This document shows, piece by piece, positions 5,196 to 40,600 of a DNA stretch of 64,000 bases. The notes under the pieces are model-generated. The model ran no database searches and was not told the DNA's origin. It saw only the letters and a list, made by a program, of their open reading frames with translations. Location of the stretch: the NCBI RefSeq assembly GCF_003334255.1, contig NZ_QOWU01000003.1, one strand, 5' to 3'. The stretch comes from Escherichia coli (lineage in GTDB: Bacteria; Pseudomonadota; Gammaproteobacteria; Enterobacterales; Enterobacteriaceae). How positions within the stretch are numbered: the stretch's first letter is position 1; each line of letters starts with the position of its first letter. A program made the position numbers and the translations under genes.

Positions 5196-7490
5196 TCAGA
5201 GCGCCTGGGTAAAGGTACGTGAAATAACATCCTGTTGCTGTTCACGGGTCAGTGCGTTGAAGCGCACGGCGTAGCCAGAGACACGGATTGTCAGGTTAGG
5301 ATATTTTTCCGGGTGCTCGATGGCATCCAGCAGCATTTCCCGATTCATTACGTTGACGTTGAGGTGTTGACCGCCTTCGACATCCGCTTCGTGGTGGAAA
5401 TACCCATCCAGCAGGCCGACAAGGTTGGTTTTACGTACTGGATCTTCTTTGCCCAGCGCCGCAGGAACGATTGAGAAGGTGTACGAGATCCCATCTTTGG
5501 CGTAGGTGAACGGCAGTTTCGCCACCGACGTCAATGAGGCCACGGCACCTTTGCGGTCACGACCATGCATCGGGTTAGCGCCCGGCGCGAACGGTGTTCC
5601 GGCGCGACGACCGTCCGGCGTATTACCGGTTTTCTGGCCGTACACCACGTTAGAAGTGATAGTCAGAATCGACTGGGTAGGGACGGCGTTGCGATAGGTT
5701 GGCAGCGCTTTAATTTTCTTCATAAAGCGTTCAACCAGGTCGCAGGCAATGCTGTCTACGCGCTCGTCGTTGTTGCCGTACTGCGGATATTCACCGTCGA
5801 TTTCAAAGTCCACCGCCAGGCCGTTTTCGTCACGGATTGGTTTCACGCGGGCATATTTGATGGCAGACAGGGAGTCCGTCGCCACCGACAGGCCCGCGAT
5901 GCCGCATGCCATAGTGCGATAGACATCACGATCGTGCAGCGCCATCAGCGAAGCTTCGTAGCTGTACTTGTCGTGCATGTAGTGAATGATATTCAGCGCG
6001 CTGATGTACTGCACCGCCAGCCAGTCCATGAAGTGATCGAGGCTGTCCATCACTTTGTCGTAATCCAGCACGTCGTCCATCAGCGGTGCTGTTTTCGGCC
6101 CGACCTGAATCTTCAGCTTCTCGTCCACCCCGCCGTTAATTGCGTAGAGCAGCGTTTTCGCCAGGTTAGCGCGTGCACCAAAGAACTGCATTTGCTTACC
6201 AATCACCATTGGGCTGACGCAGCAGGCAATCGCGTAATCGTCGCTGTTGAAGTCAGTACGCATCAGATCGTCATTTTCATACTGCAAGGAAGAGGTGACG
6301 ATCGACACCTGCGCGGCATATTTTTTGAAGGCAATCGGTAATTCCTCCGACCAAAGAATGGTCAGGTTAGGTTCCGGTGCCGGCCCCATAGTGTGCAGGG
6401 TGTGCAAATAGCGGAAGGAGTTTTTGGTCACCAGCGTACGACCGTCCAGCCCCATCCCGCCGATCACTTCCGTCGCCCAGATTGGGTCGCCGGAGAACAG
6501 CGAATCAAATTCCGGTGTACGCAGGAAGCGTACCATACGGATCTTCATGATGAAGTGATCGATCAGTTCCTGTGCCTGCTGCTCATTGAGTACGCCAGCT
6601 TTAAAGTCGCGCTCAATGTAGATATCGAGGAACGATGCCGTGCGGCCCAGCGACATCGCGCCGCCATTTTGCGATTTCACTGCCGCCAGATAAGCGAAGT
6701 AGAGCCACTGCACCGCTTCCTGCGCATTCTGCGCCGGGCGAGAGATATCAAAGCCATATTTCGCCGCCATTTCCTGAATCTGCAACAGCGCATGACGATG
6801 CTCTGCCAGCTCCTCACGCAGACGGATGGTGGCTTCCAGATCCTCGCCTTTTTCCAGACGAGACTGGAGATCGGCAAATTGCAGTTCGCGTTCACGTACC
6901 AGATAACTGATGCCATACAGCGCTACGCGGCGATAGTCACCGATAATGCGCCCACGGCCATAGCCATCTGGTAAACCGGTCAGCACGCCAGATTTACGGC
7001 AGCGCAGCATATCCGGTGAGTAAACATCAAATACGCCCTGGTTATGGGTTTTACGCAGATCGGTAAACAGATATTCAAATTCACTGTCCATTTCTCGGCC
7101 ATAGGCGTGGAATGAACTTTTAATCATATTAATGCCACCGAACGGGTGTAGCGCACGTTTCAACGGCGCATCCGTTTGCAGGCCAACAATTTTTTCCAGC
7201 GGCTGGTTAATATATCCCGCATCATGAGCGGTAATTGTGGTGGCAATATTGGTATCGAAATCAACCGGCGCGTGGGTTGCATTTTCGATACGGATGCCTT
7301 CCATTACTTTTTCCCACAATTCCGTGGTGGCAGGCGTCGCTTCGGCGAGGAAAGATTCATCGCCTTCATACGGTGTATAGTTATGTTGAATAAAATCGCG
7401 GACATTAATTTCGTTTTTCCAGTCCGTACCTTTAAAGCCAAGCCATGCGTCGGCGTACAGCTTATCGCTGGTATCAATATCTACCTTCAT
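5196..7490 (-). CDS. tdcE: 2-ketobutyrate/pyruvate formate-lyase TdcE (glycyl radical enzyme), 764 aa
   Basis: PFL-family translation with C-terminal glycyl radical motif RVSGYAVRF; length and synteny match tdcE. Confidence 0.93.
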
Positions 7491-23872: not shown

Positions 23873-25153
23873 GTGAAACATCTGACAGAAATGGTGAGAC
23901 AGCACAAAGCGGGCAAAACAAATGGAATTTATGCCGTTTGTTCCGCACATCCGCTGGTGCTGGAGGCTGCAATCCGCTACGCCAGTGCAAACCAAACGCC
24001 GTTACTGATTGAAGCAACCTCCAATCAGGTAGACCAGTTCGGCGGTTATACCGGAATGACGCCCGCCGATTTTCGCGGCTTTGTTTGTCAGCTCGCCGAC
24101 TCGTTGAATTTCCCGCAGGATGCGTTGATTCTGGGTGGTGACCATCTGGGGCCAAACCGCTGGCAAAACCTGCCGGCCGCTCAGGCAATGGCCAATGCCG
24201 ATGATTTGATTAAAAGCTACGTTGCGGCAGGATTCAAAAAAATCCACCTTGATTGCAGCATGTCCTGTCAGGACGATCCGATTCCCTTAACTGATGACAT
24301 CGTGGCTGAACGCGCCGCCCGTCTGGCGAAAGTGGCGGAAGAAACCTGTCTTGAACACTTTGGCGAAGCCGATCTGGAGTATGTCATTGGTACCGAAGTG
24401 CCGGTACCTGGCGGCGCGCATGAAACCTTAAGCGAGCTGGCGGTCACCACGCCGGATGCCGCCCGCGCCACGCTGGAAGCCCATCGTCACGCCTTTGAAA
24501 AGCAAGGTTTGAATGCCATCTGGCCACGCATCATTGCCCTGGTGGTTCAACCCGGCGTCGAATTCGATCACACCAACGTTATTGATTATCAGCCCGCCAA
24601 AGCGAGCGCCTTAAGCCAGATGGTCGAAAACTACGAAACGCTGATTTTCGAAGCGCACTCTACCGATTATCAAACGCCGCAATCGCTGCGCCAGCTGGTG
24701 ATTGACCACTTTGCCATTCTGAAAGTTGGCCCAGCGCTGACCTTCGCCCTGCGTGAAGCTCTGTTCTCTCTGGCGGCGATTGAAGAAGAACTGGTGCCAG
24801 CGAAAGCCTGTTCTGGTCTGCGTCAGGTGCTGGAAGACGTGATGCTCGACCGCCCGGAATACTGGCAAAGCCACTACCACGGTGACGGCAACGCGCGTCG
24901 TCTGGCGCGTGGTTATAGCTACTCGGATCGCGTGCGCTATTACTGGCCGGACAGCCAGATTGATGACGCTTTCGCTCATCTGGTACGTAATCTGGCGGAT
25001 TCACCAATTCCGCTGCCGCTGATCAGCCAGTATCTGCCGCTGCAGTACGTGAAAGTTCGCTCCGGCGAGCTGCAGCCAACGCCACGGGAACTCATTATCA
25101 ACCATATTCAGGACATCCTGGCGCAGTACCACACAGCCTGTGAAGGCCAATAA
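23873..25153 (+). CDS. kbaZ: tagatose-bisphosphate aldolase non-catalytic subunit KbaZ (AgaZ), 426 aa
   Basis: GTG start at 23873 preceded by GGAGAGG; translation [37 protein letters not shown]... (GatZ/KbaZ family). Confidence 0.92.
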
Positions 25154-25175: not shown

Positions 25176-25649
25176 ATGCCAAATATTGTTTTAAGCCGGA
25201 TTGATGAACGCTTGATTCACGGTCAGGTCGGCGTTCAATGGGTCGGATTTGCGGGGGCAAATCTGGTGCTGGTAGCCAACGATGAGGTTGCCGAAGATCC
25301 GGTACAACAAAACCTGATGGAAATGGTACTGGCAGAAGGGATCGCCGTACGTTTCTGGACGCTGCAAAAAGTTATCGACAACATTCATCGCGCCGCCGAT
25401 CGACAGAAAATCCTGCTGGTTTGTAAAACACCCGCCGATTTCCTGACGCTGGTGAAAGGTGGCGTTCCGGTGAATCGCATTAACGTTGGCAATATGCACT
25501 ACGCCAATGGCAAACAACAAATCGCCAAAACGGTTTCTGTGGATGCGGGCGATATCGCAGCATTTAACGACCTGAAAACCGCTGGGGTGGAATGCTTCGT
25601 TCAGGGCGTCCCGACAGAGCCTGCTGTGGACCTCTTTAAATTACTTTGA
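25176..25649 (+). CDS. agaV: PTS N-acetylgalactosamine-specific EIIB component AgaV, 157 aa
   Basis: MPNIVLSRIDERLIHGQVGVQWVGFAG... (mannose-family IIB with active-site His); ATG at 25176 after AAGAGGA RBS. Confidence 0.9.
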   Translation: MPNIVLSRIDERLIHGQVGVQWVGFAGANLVLVANDEVAEDPVQQNLMEMVLAEGIAVRFWTLQKVIDNIHRAADRQKILLVCKTPADFLTLVKGGVPVNRINVGNMHYANGKQQIAKTVSVDAGDIAAFNDLKTAGVECFVQGVPTEPAVDLFKLL

Positions 25650-25659
25650 GGGATTCATC

Positions 25660-26439
25660 ATGGAAATCAGCCTGTTGCAGGCATTTGCGTTGGGCATTAT
25701 CGCCTTTATCGCTGGCCTGGATATGTTTAACGGCCTAACCCATATGCACCGCCCGGTGGTCCTCGGCCCGTTGGTCGGGCTGGTACTTGGCGATCTGCAT
25801 ACCGGAATTTTAACCGGCGGTACGCTGGAACTGGTGTGGATGGGGCTGGCCCCGCTGGCGGGCGCACAGCCGCCTAACGTGATTATCGGTACTATCGTCG
25901 GCACGGCGTTTGCCATTACTACTGGCGTGAAACCCGATGTCGCAGTAGGTGTCGCCGTACCTTTCGCTGTCGCAGTACAGATGGGGATTACCTTCCTGTT
26001 CTCGGTGATGTCCGGCGTGATGTCTCGCTGCGACCGGATGGCGGAGAACGCCGATACTCGCGGCATTGAACGCGTGAACTATCTGGCACTGCTGGCACTC
26101 GGCATTTTCTATTTTCTCTGCGCTTTCCTGCCTATCTACTTCGGCGCGGAACATGCAAAAACCATCATTGATGTCCTGCCGCAACGATTAATCGACGGCC
26201 TCGGCGTCGCGGGCGGCATCATGCCAGCAATCGGTTTTGCCGTGCTGCTGAAAATCATGATGAAAAACGTCTACATCCCCTACTTCATCCTGGGCTTTGT
26301 TGCCGCCGCCTGGCTCAAGTTACCAGTGCTGGCTATTGCTGCCGCTGCGCTGGCGATGGCGCTGATCGACTTGCTGCGTAAATCTCCTGAACCGACTCAA
26401 CCTGCGGCACAGAAAGAGGAATTTGAAGATGGCATCTAA
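25660..26439 (+). CDS. agaW: PTS N-acetylgalactosamine-specific EIIC component AgaW, full length (259 aa)
   Basis: Mannose-family IIC membrane protein; full length here, whereas the K-12 MG1655 allele is truncated by a deletion (established knowledge). Confidence 0.88.
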   Translation: MEISLLQAFALGIIAFIAGLDMFNGLTHMHRPVVLGPLVGLVLGDLHTGILTGGTLELVWMGLAPLAGAQPPNVIIGTIVGTAFAITTGVKPDVAVGVAVPFAVAVQMGITFLFSVMSGVMSRCDRMAENADTRGIERVNYLALLALGIFYFLCAFLPIYFGAEHAKTIIDVLPQRLIDGLGVAGGIMPAIGFAVLLKIMMKNVYIPYFILGFVAAAWLKLPVLAIAAAALAMALIDLLRKSPEPTQPAAQKEEFEDGI

Positions 26440-27307
26440 TCAAACCACCCTGCCGAACGTCAGTGAAAACGAAGAAACATTGCTGACTGGCGTCAATGAA
26501 AACGTGTATGAAGATCAGAGCATTGGCGCGGAGCTGACGAAAAAAGATATCAACCGCGTCGCCTGGCGTTCCATGCTGTTACAAGCGTCTTTTAACTACG
26601 AACGTATGCAGGCTTCTGGCTGGTTGTACGGTCTGCTGCCTGCTCTGAAAAAGATCCACACTAATAAACGCGACCTGGCGCGCGCCATGAAGGGGCATAT
26701 GGGTTTCTTCAATACCCATCCGTTTCTGGTGACGTTTGTTATCGGCATTATCCTTGCGATGGAGCGTTCTAAGCAGGACGTTAACAGTATTCAGAGCACC
26801 AAAATTGCCGTCGGTGCGCCGCTTGGCGGGATTGGCGATGCAATGTTCTGGCTAACGCTACTGCCGATTTGTGGCGGGATTGGAGCCAGTCTGGCATTGC
26901 AAGGCTCCATTCTTGGCGCAGTCGTCTTTATTGTGCTGTTCAACGTGGTACACCTGGGGCTGCGTTTTGGTCTGGCGCATTATGCTTACCGCATGGGCGT
27001 GGCGGCGATTCCACTGATTAAAGCGAATACCAAAAAAGTCGGCCATGCTGCGTCTATCGTTGGGATGACGGTAATCGGTGCGCTGGTGGCAACCTATGTT
27101 CGTTTAAGCACCACGCTGGAAATCACGGCGGGCGACGCAGTGGTTAAGTTACAGGCTGATGTTATCGACAAACTGATGCCGGCCTTCTTACCGTTGGTCT
27201 ACACCCTGACCATGTTTTGGTTGGTACGCCGCGGCTGGAGTCCGCTGCGTCTGATTGCAGTTACCGTGGTTCTCGGCATCGTCGGTAAATTCTGCCATTT
27301 CCTTTAA
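26429..27307 (+). CDS. agaE: PTS N-acetylgalactosamine-specific EIID component AgaE, 292 aa
   Basis: ATG at 26429 (MASNQTTLPNVSENEETLL...) 9 nt after AAGAGGA; mannose-family IID; overlaps the agaW stop. Absent from K-12 MG1655. Confidence 0.88.
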   Translation: MASNQTTLPNVSENEETLLTGVNENVYEDQSIGAELTKKDINRVAWRSMLLQASFNYERMQASGWLYGLLPALKKIHTNKRDLARAMKGHMGFFNTHPFLVTFVIGIILAMERSKQDVNSIQSTKIAVGAPLGGIGDAMFWLTLLPICGGIGASLALQGSILGAVVFIVLFNVVHLGLRFGLAHYAYRMGVAAIPLIKANTKKVGHAASIVGMTVIGALVATYVRLSTTLEITAGDAVVKLQADVIDKLMPAFLPLVYTLTMFWLVRRGWSPLRLIAVTVVLGIVGKFCHFL

Positions 27308-27324
27308 ATACAATGAGGTATTAG

Positions 27325-27759
27325 ATGTTAAGTATTATTTTGACAGGGCATGGCGGGTTTGCCAGCGGCATGGAAAAAGCAATGAAGCAAATTCTCGGTG
27401 AGCAATCGCAGTTTATCGCCATCGATTTTCCGGAAACCTCAAGCACCGCGCTGCTTACATCGCAGCTTGAAGAGGCCATCGCCCAACTGGATTGTGAAGA
27501 CGGCATTGTTTTTCTGACGGATTTGCTGGGCGGCACGCCGTTTCGCGTAGCTTCAACGCTGGCGATGCAAAAACCGGGCTGTGAAGTGATCACCGGCACC
27601 AATTTGCAACTGCTACTGGAGATGGTGCTGGAGCGCGAAGGGTTAAGCGGTGAAGAATTCCGTGTACAGGCGCTGGAGTGTGGACACCGAGGGCTGACCA
27701 GTCTGGTGGACGAGTTAGGCCGCTGCCATGAAGAATGTCCGGTCGAGGAAGGAATATGA
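27325..27759 (+). CDS. agaF: PTS N-acetylgalactosamine/galactosamine EIIA component AgaF, 144 aa
   Basis: MLSIILTGHGGFASGMEKAMKQILGEQSQFIAIDFPE... (mannose-family IIA with active-site His in the TGHGGFA context). Confidence 0.88.
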   Translation: MLSIILTGHGGFASGMEKAMKQILGEQSQFIAIDFPETSSTALLTSQLEEAIAQLDCEDGIVFLTDLLGGTPFRVASTLAMQKPGCEVITGTNLQLLLEMVLEREGLSGEEFRVQALECGHRGLTSLVDELGRCHEECPVEEGI

Positions 27760-28889
27760 CACACGTTCTGCGCGCCAGAAGGCTGCTGACTGAAGAGGGA
27801 TGGCTCGATGACCATCAGTTGCGTATTGCTGACGGTGTCATCGCAGCAATCGAACCGATTCCAGCGGGCGTGACTGAACGCGATGCGGAACTGCTCTGCC
27901 CTGCTTACATCGACACCCATGTACACGGTGGTGCGGGCGTTGATGTAATGGATGACGCGCCGGATGTACTCGACAAGCTGGCAATGCACAAGGCACGCGA
28001 AGGTGTCGGCAGTTGGTTACCGACCACCGTAACCACGCCGCTTAATACCATTCATGCGGCGCTGAAACGTATTGCTCAACGTTGCCAACGCGGCGGACCT
28101 GGTGCGCAAGTGCTGGGGAGTTATCTCGAAGGACCGTACTTCACGCCGCAGAATAAAGGCGCGCATCCGCCGGAGTTGTTTCGCGAGCTTGAAATTGCCG
28201 AGCTGGATCAGTTGATTGCCGTTTCTCAGCACACCTTACGTGTGGTAGCGCTGGCACCGGAAAAAGAAGGGGCATTGCAGGCCATCCGCCATCTTAAACA
28301 GCAAAACGTAAGGGTGATGCTGGGGCATAGCGCGGCGACCTGGCAACAAACCCGCGCCGCATTTGATGCTGGTGCCGACGGCCTGGTGCATTGCTATAAC
28401 GGGATGACAGGTTTACATCACCGCGAACCGGGAATGGTTGGCGCGGGATTAACGGACAAGCGCGCCTGGCTGGAACTGATAGCCGATGGTCATCATGTGC
28501 ATCCGGCGGCAATGTCGCTGTGTTGTTGCTGTGCGAAAGAGAGAATCGTACTGATCACCGACGCGATGCAGGCAGCTGGGATGCCGGATGGTCGCTATAC
28601 GTTATGTGGTGAAGAAGTGCAGATGCACGGTGGCGTTGTCCGTACCGCGTCTGGTGGGCTGGCGGGCAGTACGCTGTCTGTTGATGCGGCAGTGCGCAAT
28701 ATGGTCGAGTTGACGGGCGTAACGCCTGCGGAAGCCATCCATATGGCGTCACTGCATCCGGCGCGAATGCTGGGTGTTGATGGTGTTCTGGGATCGCTTA
28801 AACCGGGCAAACGCGCCAGCGTCGTTGCGCTGGATAGCGGGCTACATGTGCAACAAATCTGGATTCAGGGTCAATTAGCTTCGTTTTGA
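27756..28889 (+). CDS. agaA: N-acetylgalactosamine-6-phosphate deacetylase AgaA, full length (377 aa)
   Basis: MTHVLRARRLLTEEGWLDDHQLRIADGVIAAIEP... with NagA-type metal ligands (HVHGG); ATG overlaps the agaF stop (ATGA). Full length here; K-12 MG1655 carries a 5'-truncated allele. Confidence 0.88.
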   Translation: MTHVLRARRLLTEEGWLDDHQLRIADGVIAAIEPIPAGVTERDAELLCPAYIDTHVHGGAGVDVMDDAPDVLDKLAMHKAREGVGSWLPTTVTTPLNTIHAALKRIAQRCQRGGPGAQVLGSYLEGPYFTPQNKGAHPPELFRELEIAELDQLIAVSQHTLRVVALAPEKEGALQAIRHLKQQNVRVMLGHSAATWQQTRAAFDAGADGLVHCYNGMTGLHHREPGMVGAGLTDKRAWLELIADGHHVHPAAMSLCCCCAKERIVLITDAMQAAGMPDGRYTLCGEEVQMHGGVVRTASGGLAGSTLSVDAAVRNMVELTGVTPAEAIHMASLHPARMLGVDGVLGSLKPGKRASVVALDSGLHVQQIWIQGQLASF

Positions 28890-29239: not shown

Positions 29240-30394
29240 ATGCCAGAAAATTACACCCCTGCTGCCGCCGCAACCGGTACATGGACTGAAGAAGAGATCC
29301 GCCATCAGCCTCGCGCATGGATCCGTTCACTCACCAACATCGACGCGCTACGTTCCGCGCTCAATAACTTCCTTGAACCGTTACTGCGCAAAGAGAATCT
29401 GCGGATCATCCTGACCGGAGCCGGAACGTCGGCATTTATCGGTGACATCATCGCGCCGTGGCTCGCCAGCCATACCGGTAAAAACTTCAGCGCCGTACCG
29501 ACCACCGATCTGGTCACCAATCCGATGGACTACCTGAACCCAGCTCATCCGCTGCTGTTGATCTCCTTCGGTCGATCCGGCAACAGCCCGGAAAGCGTCG
29601 CAGCCGTGGAACTGGCAAATCAATTTGTACCGGAATGCTATCACCTGCCGATCACCTGCAACGAAGCGGGCGCTCTTTACCAAAACGCGATCAACAGCGA
29701 TAACGCGTTTGCCCTGCTGATGCCCGCAGAAACGCACGATCGCGGCTTTGCGATGACCAGCAGCATTACCACCATGATGGCCAGCTGCCTCGCGGTTTTC
29801 GCACCTGAGACGATCAACAGCCAAACCTTCCGCGACGTGGCGGATCGTTGCCAGGCGATCCTGACCTCACTGGGCGATTTCAGCGAAGGTGTGTTTGGTT
29901 ACGCACCGTGGAAACGGATCGTTTATCTCGGTAGCGGTGGCTTACAGGGCGCAGCACGCGAGTCGGCGCTGAAAGTGCTGGAACTGACGGCGGGTAAACT
30001 GGCGGCCTTTTATGATTCTCCAACCGGATTCCGTCATGGACCAAAATCGCTGGTCGATGACGAAACGCTGGTGGTGGTATTTGTCTCCAGCCACCCTTAC
30101 ACCCGTCAGTATGATCTTGATCTGCTGGCTGAACTTCGCCGTGACAACCAGGCAATGCGTGTAATCGCCATCGCCGCGGAAAGCAGCGACATCGTCGCTG
30201 CCGGTCCACATATCATCCTGCCACCGTCACGTCACTTTATCGACGTTGAGCAGGCATTTTGCTTCCTGATGTACGCCCAGACGTTTGCACTGATGCAGTC
30301 GCTGCACATGGGCAATACGCCGGATACCCCATCAGCCAGTGGCACCGTTAACCGCGTGGTGCAAGGCGTAATCATTCATCCGTGGCAGGCATAA
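29240..30394 (+). CDS. agaS: SIS-domain galactosamine-6-phosphate deaminase/isomerase AgaS, 384 aa
   Basis: Two SIS domains (…LTGAGTSAF… and …LGSGGLQGAARESALK…); translation MPENYTPAAAATGTWTEEEIRHQPRAW... Confidence 0.92.
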   Translation: MPENYTPAAAATGTWTEEEIRHQPRAWIRSLTNIDALRSALNNFLEPLLRKENLRIILTGAGTSAFIGDIIAPWLASHTGKNFSAVPTTDLVTNPMDYLNPAHPLLLISFGRSGNSPESVAAVELANQFVPECYHLPITCNEAGALYQNAINSDNAFALLMPAETHDRGFAMTSSITTMMASCLAVFAPETINSQTFRDVADRCQAILTSLGDFSEGVFGYAPWKRIVYLGSGGLQGAARESALKVLELTAGKLAAFYDSPTGFRHGPKSLVDDETLVVVFVSSHPYTRQYDLDLLAELRRDNQAMRVIAIAAESSDIVAAGPHIILPPSRHFIDVEQAFCFLMYAQTFALMQSLHMGNTPDTPSASGTVNRVVQGVIIHPWQA

Positions 30395-31267
<873 letters not shown>

Positions 31268-31433: not shown

Positions 31434-31910
31434 ATGACCAGTCCAAATATTCTCTTAACCCGTATTGATAACCGTCTGGTTCACGGTCAGGTTGGCGTGA
31501 CCTGGACATCCACCATCGGTGCAAATCTGCTGGTAGTCGTGGATGATGTTGTCGCTAACGATGATATTCAACAGAAATTAATGGGTATTACCGCGGAAAC
31601 CTACGGCTTTGGCATTCGTTTCTTTACTATCGAAAAAACCATTAACGTCATCGGCAAAGCTGCACCACATCAGAAGATCTTCCTGATTTGCCGTACGCCA
31701 CAAACGGTACGTAAATTGGTAGAAGGTGGTATTGACCTGAAAGATGTCAACGTCGGCAATATGCATTTCTCGGAAGGGAAAAAGCAAATCAGCAGTAAAG
31801 TTTATGTCGATGACCAGGATCTCACGGACTTACGTTTTATTAAACAACGTGGCGTGAATGTTTTCATTCAGGACGTCCCTGGCGATCAAAAAGAACAAAT
31901 CCCTGACTAA
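31434..31910 (+). CDS. agaB: PTS galactosamine-specific EIIB component AgaB, 158 aa
   Basis: MTSPNILLTRIDNRLVHGQVGVTWTSTIGANLLVVVDD...; paralog of agaV. Confidence 0.92.
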   Translation: MTSPNILLTRIDNRLVHGQVGVTWTSTIGANLLVVVDDVVANDDIQQKLMGITAETYGFGIRFFTIEKTINVIGKAAPHQKIFLICRTPQTVRKLVEGGIDLKDVNVGNMHFSEGKKQISSKVYVDDQDLTDLRFIKQRGVNVFIQDVPGDQKEQIPD

Positions 31911-31948: not shown

Positions 31949-32752
31949 ATGCATGAAATAACCCTACTTCAGGGATTATCCCTGGCGGCGTTAGTTTTTG
32001 TTCTGGGGATTGATTTTTGGCTGGAAGCCTTATTTTTATTCCGCCCGATAATCGTTTGTACCCTAACTGGCGCTATTCTCGGTGATATTCAGACTGGCTT
32101 AATTACCGGTGGTCTGACAGAGTTGGCTTTCGCCGGATTAACCCCTGCAGGTGGTGTTCAGCCGCCCAACCCGATTATGGCGGGTCTGATGACCACCGTC
32201 ATTGCATGGTCTACGGGCGTTGATGCCAAAACAGCAATTGGTCTTGGCCTGCCGTTTAGTTTGTTAATGCAGTACGTCATTCTGTTCTTCTATTCCGCTT
32301 TCTCATTATTTATGACCAAAGCCGATAAATGCGCGAAAGAGGCGGATACGGCAGCGTTTTCCCGGCTTAACTGGACAACGATGCTCATCGTCGCTTCAGC
32401 GTATGCGGTGATTGCTTTCCTCTGTACTTACCTGGCACAGGGGGCGATGCAGGCGCTGGTGAAAGCGATGCCCGCCTAGCTGACCCACGGCTTTGAAGTG
32501 GCTGGCGGTATTCTGCCTGCCGTTGGTTTTGGCTTGCTGCTGCGCGTAATGTTCAAAGCGCAATATATCCCTTACCTGATCGCCGGTTTCCTGTTTGTTT
32601 GCTACATCCAGGTCAGCAACCTGTTGCCGGTTGCCGTACTGGGCGCAGGCTTTGCGGTGTATGAGTTTTTCAATGCGAAATCCCGGCAGCAAGCGCAACC
32701 GCAGCCCGTTGCCAGTAAAAATGAAGAAGAGGACTACAGCAATGGGATCTGA
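31949..32752 (+). pseudogene. agaC: PTS galactosamine-specific EIIC component AgaC interrupted by an in-frame TAG at 32477-32479
   Basis: Track ORFs 31949-32479 (176 aa, ends ...LVKAMPA*) and 32498-32752 (84 aa) are in the same frame and together form a 267-codon mannose-family IIC. The stop lies in ...ALVKAMPA-TAG-LTHGFEVAGGILPAVGFGLLL..., where homologous IIC proteins have Trp (TGG). Could be a real nonsense allele or a sequence error. Confidence 0.75.
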
Positions 32753-33533
32753 AATCAGTAAAAAAGATATCACCCGTCTGGGCTTTCGTTCGTCGCTGCT
32801 GCAAGCGAGCTTTAACTACGAAAGGATGCAGGCGGGCGGTTTTACCTGGGCGATGTTGCCGATCCTGAAAAAGATTTATAAGGACGACAAACCGGGCTTA
32901 AGCGCGGCGATGAAAGATAACCTCGAATTTATTAATACCCACCCGAATCTGGTCGGATTCCTGATGGGGTTATTAATTTCGATGGAAGAAAAAGGAGAAA
33001 ACCGCGACACCATTAAAGGCCTCAAAGTGGCACTGTTTGGCCCAATCGCCGGGATTGGCGATGCGATTTTCTGGTTTACTTTGTTGCCGATTATGGCGGG
33101 AATTTGCTCATCATTTGCCAGCCAGGGAAACCTGCTGGGGCCGATTCTATTTTTCGCCGTTTACCTGCTTATCTTTTTCCTGCGCGTCGGCTGGACCCAC
33201 GTCGGTTATTCAGTCGGCGTGAAGGCGATCGATAAAGTGCGAGAGAACTCGCAGATGATTGCCCGTTCGGCAACCATCCTCGGGATCACGGTAATCGGCG
33301 GGCTGATCGCTTCGTATGTGCATATTAACGTGGTGACATCGTTTGCCATCGACAATACCCACAGCGTTGCGCTGCAGCAGGATTTCTTCGATAAAGTCTT
33401 CCCGAACATTTTACCGATGGCCTACACCCTGCTGATGTATTACTTCCTGCGGGTGAAAAAAGCGCATCCGGTGCTGTTAATCGGCGTGACTTTTGTGCTC
33501 TCTATTGTTTGTTCCGCATTCGGCATTTTGTAA
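32742..33533 (+). CDS. agaD: PTS galactosamine-specific EIID component AgaD, 263 aa
   Basis: ATG at 32742 (MGSEISKKDITRLGFRSSLLQASFNYERMQAGG...) overlapping the agaC stop; the track ORF has a 49-codon upstream extension. Confidence 0.9.
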   Translation: MGSEISKKDITRLGFRSSLLQASFNYERMQAGGFTWAMLPILKKIYKDDKPGLSAAMKDNLEFINTHPNLVGFLMGLLISMEEKGENRDTIKGLKVALFGPIAGIGDAIFWFTLLPIMAGICSSFASQGNLLGPILFFAVYLLIFFLRVGWTHVGYSVGVKAIDKVRENSQMIARSATILGITVIGGLIASYVHINVVTSFAIDNTHSVALQQDFFDKVFPNILPMAYTLLMYYFLRVKKAHPVLLIGVTFVLSIVCSAFGIL

Positions 33534-34289
33534 ATGGAACGAGGCACTGCGTCTGGTGGTGCCTCTTTACTTAAGGAATTTCATCCTGTGCAAACCCTTC
33601 AGCAAGTTGAAAACTATACGGCGTTAAGTGAACGTGCCAGCGAATATTTATTGGCCGTGATCCGTAGCAAACCGAATGCCGTGATTTGCCTGGCGACCGG
33701 AGCCACGCCATTACTGACGTATCATTATCTGGTAGAAAAAATCCACCAGCAGCAGGTTGATGTCAGCCAGCTCACCTTCGTGAAGCTCGACGAATGGGTG
33801 GATCTGCCATTAACGATGCCAGGCACCTGCGAAACTTTCCTGCAACAGCATATCGTGCAGCCGCTGGGGCTACGTGAAGACCAGCTCATCAGCTTTCGCT
33901 CCGAAGAGATAAATGAGACAGAGTGCGAACGGGTAACGAACCTGATTGCGCGCAAAGGCGGTCTGGATTTATGCGTTCTCGGATTGGGGAAAAACGGTCA
34001 TCTTGGGCTGAACGAACCGGGAGAAAGCCTGCAACCGGCCTGCCATATCAGTCAACTTGATGCCAGAACACAGCAACATGAGATGTTAAAAACCGCGGGT
34101 CGCCCCGTGACTCGTGGGATCACCTTAGGCCTGAAGGATATTCTCAATGCCCGCGAAGTTTTGTTACTGGTGACTGGCGAAGGAAAGCAGGATGCGACAG
34201 ATCGTTTTCTCACGGCTAAAGTCTCTACCGCTATCCCGGCTTCATTTTTATGGCTGCACAGTAACTTTATTTGTTTAATTAACACCTAA
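33534..34289 (+). CDS. agaI: NagB-like galactosamine-6-phosphate deaminase/isomerase AgaI, 251 aa
   Basis: Glucosamine-6-phosphate deaminase family translation; last gene of the aga cluster. Confidence 0.88.
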   Translation: MERGTASGGASLLKEFHPVQTLQQVENYTALSERASEYLLAVIRSKPNAVICLATGATPLLTYHYLVEKIHQQQVDVSQLTFVKLDEWVDLPLTMPGTCETFLQQHIVQPLGLREDQLISFRSEEINETECERVTNLIARKGGLDLCVLGLGKNGHLGLNEPGESLQPACHISQLDARTQQHEMLKTAGRPVTRGITLGLKDILNAREVLLLVTGEGKQDATDRFLTAKVSTAIPASFLWLHSNFICLINT

Positions 34290-38604: not shown

Positions 38605-39696
38605 ATGAAAAGAGCGCCTCTTATAACAGGTCTTTTGTTGATATCCACATCCTGCACTTATGCCTCCTCAGGAGGGTGTGGAGCCGACAGCACTAGCGGT
38701 GCGACAAATTACAGCAGTGTGGTTGATGATGTTACGGTGAACCAGACAGATAACGTGACAGGACGGGAGTTTACCTCTGCAACGCTAAGTAGCACTAACT
38801 GGCAATACGCCTGTTCCTGCTCTGCGGGTAAGGCAGTTAAACTTGTCTATATGGTCAGCCCCGTACTTACCACCACTGGACATCAGACAGGATATTACAA
38901 ACTCAATGACAGCCTGGATATTAAAACCACATTACAGGCAAACGACATTCCAGGACTCACAACCGACCAGGTTGTCTCTGTTAACACCCGATTCACACAG
39001 ATAAAAAACAACACGGTATATTCTGCTGCAACCCAAACGGGTGTTTGCCAGGGTGATACGTCTCGTTATGGACCCGTTAATATTGGTGCGAACACCACCT
39101 TTACCCTGTATGTCACCAAGCCATTTCTCGGCTCGATGACCATTCCGAAAACGGATATTGCCGTCATTAAAGGCGCGTGGGTCGATGGAATGGGAAGCCC
39201 GTCTACAGGTGACTTCCATGATTTAGTCAAGTTATCGATTCAGGGAAATCTCACCGCCCCACAGTCGTGCAAAATTAATCAGGGCGATGTTATTAAGGTT
39301 AATTTTGGATTCATCAATGGTCAGAAGTTTACCACCCGCAATGCCATGCCAGACGGTTTTACTCCAGTAGACTTTGATATCACTTATGACTGTGGTGATA
39401 CTTCAAAGATTAAAAACTCGTTGCAAATGCGCATCGACGGTACAACTGGGGTAGTAGACCAGTACAACCTGGTCGCCAGGCGAAGAAGTTCAGACAATGT
39501 GCCCGATGTCGGTATTCGTATTGAAAATCTCGGCGGCGGAGTTGCAAATATTCCTTTTCAGAACGGTATCCTTCCCGTTGATCCTTCCGGGCATGGCACC
39601 GTCAATATGCGCGCCTGGCCAGTTAATCTGGTCGGTGGTGAGCTGGAAACAGGAAAATTTCAGGGCACAGCCACCATTACCGTCATCGTGCGGTAA
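38605..39696 (+). CDS. yraK: fimbrial adhesin-like protein YraK, 363 aa
   Basis: ATG at 38605 ([24 protein letters not shown]...) with signal peptide; large tip-adhesin-like subunit; the track ORF has an upstream extension inside yraJ. Confidence 0.88.
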
Positions 39697-40600
39697 AAGA
39701 AGACGTTGCGTTTTGATTAACGCAACGCTTCGGCACTGTTACCCCTGCTGCTCCAGCGCATAACTTATACAGCGCATTTTTCTTCACGCCGTGAATTTCT
39801 GCGGCCAGCGCCGCCGCTTTTTTCAGCGGCAGTTCTGCCTGTAGCAGCGCCAGCGTGCGCAGGGCATCGGCGGGTAAGTCTTCTTCCTGTGCTTTATGAC
39901 CTTCGACAATCAGCACCATTTCGCCTTTGCGACGGTTTTCATCTTCCTTTACCCACGCCAGCAGCTCGCCAACGGGCGCGCCGTGAATGGTTTCCCAGGT
40001 TTTGGTCAGCTCACGCGCCAGAACCACGTAGCGGGATTCGCCTAATACCGCAACGATATCTTCCAGGCTATCTAACAGACGGTGGGTAGATTCATAAAAA
40101 ATCAGCGTGCGCGGCTCCGCTTCAATGGCTTTTAGCGCATCACGGCGGCCTTTTGATTTGGCAGGTAAAAAGCCTTCGTAACAGAAACGGTCAGAGGGTA
40201 AACCCGCTGCGCTTAACGCAGTGATAGCAGCACACGGCCCGGGTAGCGGCACCACGCGGATCCCCGCTTCACGGCAGGTACGCACCAGATGGTAGCCAGG
40301 ATCGTTAATTAGCGGCGTTCCGGCATCGGAAACCAGCGCAATGTTTTGCCCCTCTTGCAGCTTCGCCAGCAGCGTTTCAGCTTTTTGTTGTTCGTTATGG
40401 TCGTGCAGCGCAAACAACCGGGCATTAATCCCAAAATGTTGCAGCAATAAACCGGTGTGACGAGTATCCTCGGCGGCAATCAGATCAACGGCCTGTAATA
40501 CCTCTAACGCACGCTGGGTGATATCCGCCAGATTGCCGATTGGCGTCGGTACAATGTAAAGCTGGCCCTGAGAATTATCCGCCGATTGGTGTTGTTTCAT
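39683..40600 (-). CDS. rsmI: 16S rRNA (cytidine1402-2'-O)-methyltransferase RsmI (YraL); here 305 codons with an apparently frameshifted C-terminus
   Basis: N-terminal 279 aa read as RsmI ([35 protein letters not shown]...). After ...KKNALYK the frame reads [26 protein letters not shown] and overlaps the yraK 3' end by 14 nt; the +1 frame instead reads YALEQQG-stop (TAA at 39739-39741), giving 286 aa. Confidence 0.85.

Follow-up and report, generated by a model that had tools for sequence, protein, structure and literature searches.

An amber codon in place of Trp177 in agaC of an Escherichia coli strain closely related to Symbioflor 2 components

The DNA analyzed here, a stretch of 64,000 nucleotides from Escherichia coli (hereafter the window), contains an agaC gene that is interrupted by an in-frame TAG at positions 32477-32479. 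With a probability of about 0.88, agaC of this strain is a recent pseudogene that arose through a genuine, inherited nonsense mutation of TGG (Trp177) to TAG. From the state of the remaining aga genes, the expected phenotype is galactosamine-negative (Gam-negative) and N-acetylgalactosamine-positive (Aga-positive). The W177 amber makes agaC an ordinary pseudogene, which RefSeq already flags and whose truncated product has been deposited under many accessions.

The agaC locus and the surrounding cluster

The agaC frame extends from the ATG at 31949 to the TGA at 32750-32752, and the sequence around the interruption (32465-32491) reads GCG ATG CCC GCC TAG CTG ACC CAC GGC. Alignment with agaC of K-12 MG1655 gave one difference in 804 bases (803/804 identical), a G to A change at gene position 530 that converts TGG (Trp177) to TAG; the mutated base is window position 32478. 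A preliminary description of this DNA had ascribed the amber to a single G-to-A change, which this alignment bears out. The features of the cluster are listed below; for the genes from agaR to kbaY they are based on the ORF list and the RefSeq annotation of relatives.

22815-23624, minus strand: agaR, full length
23873-25153: kbaZ, full length
25176-25649: agaV, full length
25660-26439: agaW, full length
26429-27307: agaE, full length
27325-27759: agaF, full length
27756-28889: agaA, full length
29240-30394: agaS, full length
30407-31267: kbaY, full length
31434-31910, plus strand: agaB, galactosamine PTS IIB, intact (NF007288, 281.6 bits, cut-off 180)
31949-32479, plus strand: 5' part of agaC, codons 1-176 and the premature TAG; 176-residue N-terminal IIC fragment (NF007289)
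32477-32479, plus strand: premature amber TAG in place of TGG (Trp177), the sole difference from agaC of K-12 MG1655
32480-32752, plus strand: 3' remainder of agaC, codons 178-267 and the normal TGA (NF007289 match)
32498-32752, plus strand: 84-codon ORF from an in-frame GTG (codon 184), a separate gene according to gene callers
32742-33533, plus strand: agaD, galactosamine PTS IID, intact (NF007359, 456.9 bits, cut-off 400)
33534-34289, plus strand: agaI, intact, annotated as galactosamine-6-phosphate isomerase (profile search and RefSeq annotation)

In a profile search the 5' half of agaC matched positions 1-173 of 241 of the NCBIfam equivalog NF007289 with 287.3 bits, and the 3' half matched positions 175-241 of 241 with 103.7 bits; either half alone falls below the cut-off of 300 bits. 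NF007289 represents the PTS galactosamine transporter subunit IIC, a mannose-family IIC (Pfam PF03609). The two halves, together with the shared frame, confirmed the earlier proposal that the ORFs at 31949-32479 and 32498-32752 form a single 267-codon IIC. The match to the equivalog was full length, and the gene lies between agaB and agaD, followed by agaI, as expected of agaC; the uninterrupted frame of about 267 codons was not found, as a TAG occupies codon 177. Sequence and context identify the locus as agaC, and with its open frame broken it was classified as an agaC pseudogene. Translation from the agaC start would no longer reach codons 178-267, and this 3' remainder carries no further mutations and encodes three hydrophobic stretches.

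The preliminary description had stated that all other aga genes are full length. Their ORFs were indeed complete, and none of them is flagged in the RefSeq annotation of the sister strains G1/2, G6/7 and G8. The agaW-agaA deletion of K-12 is absent from the window. The ATG of agaD overlaps the end of agaC, and agaD has its own Shine-Dalgarno sequence, AAGAGGA. A private A-to-G SNP was observed at window position 23810 in the agaR-kbaZ intergenic region, the divergent aga promoter region, where K-12 and the G strains differ from the window.

It had also been proposed that homologous IIC proteins carry Trp at the position of the stop. This held for the AgaC alleles examined and failed for the family as a whole: the residue aligned to AgaC Trp177 is Arg in AgaW of the same window and Val in ManY (6K1H, the solved mannose transporter), so that the Trp is confined to AgaC orthologues.

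Carriers of the codon 177 stop

An identical agaC sequence, including the TAG, was present in the complete genomes of strains G1/2 (NZ_CP060083.1), G6/7 (NZ_CP060061.1) and G8 (NZ_CP060057.1), in all of which RefSeq labels the whole 804-base agaC as 'pseudo' with an 'internal stop'. The same TAG was found in the 2015 Illumina drafts JPMZ01 (G6/7) and JPKL01 (G8). The accessions of these drafts are given in PMC4358396, according to which the six-component probiotic Symbioflor 2 includes G1/2, G6/7 and G8. All three are faecal isolates from Germany. The window has the same agaC sequence as these RefSeq pseudogenes. Over 40.8 kb, an identical set of 7 SNPs and one 1-base indel separates it from each of the three complete genomes; comparison with the 2015 G6/7 draft over 20.5 kb returned 3 of those SNPs and the indel. 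At some of the private SNP positions K-12 agrees with the window, and at others with the G strains. That the window derives from G1/2, G6/7 or G8 itself was rejected on the basis of the shared 7 SNPs and 1 indel, and the window represents a sister strain. As it differs from every G assembly by the same few private SNPs, the stop is older than the split of this strain from the clone. The agaC stop is vertically inherited in a small lineage to which the window strain, G1/2, G6/7 and G8 belong.

A sequencing or assembly error, in which the true codon is TGG and agaC is intact, would typically appear as a single-base difference like the one seen here, and the window does contain a private 1-base insertion elsewhere, at 39762. 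Against an error stand the identical TAG in five assemblies of three sister strains, deposited separately and produced by different technologies five years apart, and the record of the exact 176-residue product on 273 contigs, which render this explanation vanishingly unlikely. The insertion at 39762 is an extra A near the 3' end of rsmI (minus strand; ORF 39683-40600) relative to K-12 and all G-strain assemblies. The resulting frameshift at residue 280 exchanges the last 7 residues and extends the protein by 19, to 305 residues instead of 286; the insertion could be either genuine or an error of the source assembly.

A 61-mer centered on the TAG matched exactly in 5 of the 5255 complete E. 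coli genomes that hold the region, and the other 5250 differ from it by a base. The five carriers were G1/2, G6/7, G8, Z1323HEC0300 (Korea) and JNEC-KY173 (Japan). In the last two, agaC has 16 further differences, the yraHIJK operon is missing and divergence across the region is ∼3%; the same stop therefore arose on an unrelated background. Z1323HEC0300 and JNEC-KY173 share an identical stretch of 1330 bases around the stop, within a surrounding region that is 0.8% divergent between them. Across public data, codon 177 was found as TAG on at least five haplotype groups and as TGA on one.

The exact 176-residue AgaC product was recorded on 273 contigs with the K-12-type allele and on 667 contigs with a V18F allele, counts that are inflated by clonal sampling (23 of the 24 V18F contigs that were read have one context). 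No other truncated AgaC is as common in public data; other genuine mid-gene truncations occur on 17-119 contigs. A 163-residue form (308 contigs) is mostly an artefact of contigs ending inside the gene, and many KbaY fragments in the protein counts are labelled 'partial'. The use of exact-product contig counts as a mutation spectrum was tried and found only partly usable owing to contig ends, partial labels and clonal sampling.

The preliminary description had named orthologous agaC genes that also stop at this position as an observation that would refute its reading. The same stop does occur in other lineages, but it is not the normal end of the gene: the absence of the TAG 61-mer from 5250 of the 5255 genomes and the TGG of K-12 MG1655, the one that was checked directly, indicate recurrent loss of function. 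Judged by title and abstract, none of the publications returned by a literature search for agaC and agaD in E. coli concerns the Trp177 amber.

Read-through, re-initiation and predicted transport

The amber could be bypassed in two ways, both of which would leave the strain with a usable transporter. In one, the codon would be read by a suppressor tRNA or by near-cognate decoding, and the strain would stay galactosamine-positive. Amber suppressors do occur in E. coli, the part of agaC downstream of the stop is free of further damage, and UAG is comparatively leaky when a C follows, so that trace read-through may occur. The survey for suppressors covered the supE and supF loci. The supE allele (glnV with a mutated anticodon) had 155 exact matches, and all 60 records among the matches listed look like laboratory K-12 derivatives (C600, DH5alpha, DH1, J53). 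An exact-match query for the supF allele (tyrT/tyrV with a CTA anticodon) returned none of the 5426 complete genomes. No tRNA genes were found within the window. In G1/2, the closest complete genome, the metT-glnX tRNA operon was located by synteny, and ARAGORN reported the wild-type CTG anticodon for glnV as well as glnX. Thus no CUA-anticodon tRNA was found in the window, at glnV and glnX of G1/2, or by the supF query. A recent mutation equally predicts the lack of further decay downstream of the stop, and the amber allele of O157:H7 agaC is phenotypically null (PMC3668189). Read-through was accordingly considered highly unlikely, and the caveat of the preliminary description, that an amber suppressor might rescue AgaBCD, could largely be set aside.

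The other way would be a functional split gene, in which the 176-residue N-terminal fragment and an 84-residue C-terminal fragment, made by re-initiation at the GTG at 32498, together constitute a working IIC. This GTG is 19 bases downstream of the stop, and the 84-codon ORF appears in the output of gene callers. However, no Shine-Dalgarno sequence was found upstream of the GTG, and residues 177-183 would be missing from the pair. The arrangement is also rare (the 5 of 5255 complete genomes given above) and came about repeatedly by point mutation instead of being conserved, and the stops of other lineages fall at many other codons, which is the pattern of gene loss. A working split gene was regarded as extremely unlikely, slightly more so than read-through.

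With agaC as a pseudogene, translation would end after residue 176 and the last 91 residues (177-267) would be lost. Their counterpart in ManY of the mannose transporter structures (6K1H, 7DYR) is the final third of that protein, a region that contains the conserved G-x-x-V/I-A-G-G stretch; the loss would comprise the three hydrophobic segments together with the conserved motif GxxVAGGI(L/M)P. From the sequence, the truncated fragment should be incapable of forming a working IIC, and the AgaBCD/AgaF galactosamine permease would neither assemble nor transport. The cell would be galactosamine-negative and would keep growth on N-acetylgalactosamine via AgaVWE/AgaF and the intact catabolic genes. 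The preliminary description had likewise expected AgaBCD to be truncated and the GalNAc transporter to be unaffected, and the gene content agrees with this expectation: agaC carries the TAG, while agaVWE and agaF, which encodes the shared IIA, are untouched, with AgaF carrying Gly91 versus Ser in spinach-outbreak isolates.

The stop leaves 262 untranslated bases ahead of agaD, and as regards Rho-dependent polarity only a modest C-over-G stretch is located at ∼32540-32640. Polarity on agaD and agaI is possible, without further consequence for the phenotype, because without AgaC there is no use for AgaD, and agaI is not required. In E. coli, agaBCD serve galactosamine uptake, and agaI is dispensable for the use of both Aga and Gam (PMC3668189).

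The closest known counterpart is found in E. coli O157:H7 strains EDL933 and Sakai, where a CAG to TAG change at codon 8 of agaC is the stated cause of a Gam-negative phenotype; these strains are Aga-positive, and plasmid-borne agaBCD from E. coli C turns EDL933 Gam-positive (PMC3668189). The two ambers affect the same gene, each is a single transition to an amber codon in an otherwise usable aga/gam cluster, and the same phenotype is expected. They differ in position (codon 177 versus codon 8), in the residue replaced (Trp versus Gln) and in background (K-12-like versus O157:H7). A second amber, in agaI, is present in O157:H7, whereas agaI of the window is intact. Codon 8 of the window agaC is CAG (Gln), and the gene thus does not carry the O157-type allele. 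The W177 allele needs no new mechanism; it works like the O157:H7 agaC amber and is a different allele. For its carriers, among them three of the six Symbioflor 2 components, it predicts that free galactosamine is not used and that use of N-acetylgalactosamine is kept, a minor matter for gut metabolism.

Mutational route and loss of agaC in other lineages

The mutated base lies in a former Dcm site, which was identified by reading the sequence:

32475-32479, no strand assigned: former Dcm site, CCTGG changed to CCTAG (minus strand CTAGG, of the form CTWGG)

K-12 and other wild-type alleles read GCC TGG here, which gives an ancestral CCWGG at the mutated position, and base 32478 pairs with the inner, Dcm-methylated cytosine of the minus-strand CCAGG. 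The G to A change at the fourth base of CCTGG is a C to T change at the inner cytosine of the complementary CCAGG. In the proposed route, deamination of the 5-methylcytosine opposite the G of the wild-type GCC TGG would create a T:G mismatch, which, if missed by very-short-patch repair, would be fixed as CTAGG/CCTAG. T:G mismatches in CTWGG/CCWGG that result from C(5me)CWGG deamination are targeted by Vsr (PMC2715241). Full-length dcm and vsr are present in G1/2, the closest complete genome (the locus lies outside the window), and in 5359-5368 of the 5426 complete E. coli genomes (about 99%).

Deamination at Dcm sites is a classical source of amber mutations, the textbook examples being CAG to TAG changes in CCAGG of lacI. 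The agaC W177 change is the mirror image of these, TGG to TAG in CCTGG, and resembles the Dcm-site ambers countered by Vsr in its CCTGG pentamer, in a change opposite the inner cytosine and in its CTAGG product. The wild-type agaC contains four CCWGG sites, and two of the eight possible 5-methylcytosine deaminations give a stop, W177 and Q221; the Q221 stop is genuine, with TAG on six haplotypes. In total, 85 single-base changes in agaC create a stop, of which 20 are transitions, at 16 codons. Trp246 of kbaY (31142-31144, GCC TGG, also a Dcm site) is TAG on eight haplotype groups in public assemblies and is intact in the window. Among Trp codons of agaC outside Dcm sites, Trp87 was found as TAG or TGA on seven haplotype groups and Trp142 as TAG on two. 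The ratio of TAG to TGA was 13:1 at Dcm and 7:2 at non-Dcm Trp codons, which is not a significant difference (Fisher p = 0.54). An excess of recurrence over non-Dcm sites could not be demonstrated for agaC W177, and since nonsense mutations at non-Dcm agaC codons also recur, the hot-spot reading was kept as an inference. The Dcm route fits the chemistry and the sequence context, and the recurrence data fall short of proof; an origin of the W177 amber by Dcm 5-methylcytosine deamination was given about even odds.

Other inactivations of agaC are common. The O157-type Gln8 amber (codon 8, equivalent to window 31970) was present in 297 of the 5426 complete genomes versus 5 for the W177 allele, and its 256-residue product, made from a downstream start, occurs on at least 1000 contigs. 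Strain TR01 (NZ_CP033605.1), which is labelled O157:H7, has an intact agaC. An IS1 with an identical junction after about base 99 of agaC was found in 262 of the 5426 complete genomes, including many clinical isolates; an example is strain M217 (NZ_AP019189.1), where the insertion is equivalent to about window 32047. About 150 genomes had no agaC match, and recurrent agaC stops occur at codons 87, 142, 177 and 221. In AP025180.1 (1404-2446), which has the Trp142 stop in agaC, a truncated yhaV is followed by an IS1 immediately upstream of agaB, and most of the aga cluster (agaR to kbaY) appears to be deleted. Like the agaW-agaA deletion of K-12 and the IS1 in agaC, the W177 allele is a case of a natural lineage losing part of its amino-sugar uptake. 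The K-12 deletion (2.3 kb) and the IS1 insertion (0.8 kb) are structural changes, whereas the window allele is a point mutation, and GalNAc uptake, eliminated by the K-12 deletion, is intact in the window.

This pattern suggests that selection to keep galactosamine uptake is weak or intermittent. Loss of agaC might instead be adaptive and repeatedly selected in the gut, either because a phage or bacteriocin exploits AgaCD or because uptake is costly. The many independent inactivations (the IS1 insertion, the Gln8 amber and the stops at four codons) are in line with such selection, as is the scarcity of truncations in the neighboring kbaY, which is needed for both sugars: mid-gene truncations of kbaY were seen on 6, 0 and 16 contigs versus 17-273 for agaC, counts that are uncorrected for sampling. 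Microcin E492 uses the related ManYZ complex as its receptor, and lambda requires this complex for DNA entry (PMC8021565). On the other side, given that sequenced E. coli number in the hundreds of thousands, each transition nonsense mutation in a dispensable gene is expected repeatedly, neither phylogeny nor clonal sampling is corrected for in the contig counts, AgaCD is not known to be used by any agent, and agaC is intact in most genomes. Adaptive loss was therefore judged unlikely. The more specific proposal, that agaC is a preferred target of selected loss, with AgaCD, like ManYZ, serving as an entry point for phage or bacteriocin and the Dcm codons 177 and 221 supplying the ambers, is more doubtful still and seems improbable; if it were true, the W177 stop would be a visible outcome of an arms race and not of neutral decay.

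One or the other of two inactivating agaC alleles is present in at least 10% of complete E. coli genomes, alongside many rarer inactivating alleles. The W177 allele shows that ambers in aga genes represent a recurrent natural polymorphism, which should not be mistaken for sequencing errors or recoding. The wide pattern of agaC loss may merit a population-genetic study, while the W177 allele itself matters little beyond bookkeeping. Elsewhere in the window, tandem units of ∼113 bases adjoin the RNase P RNA gene (∼14918-15197, yhaC to rnpB), where secondary BLAST hits gave self-matches of 167 bases with 94.6% identity at an offset of 113.
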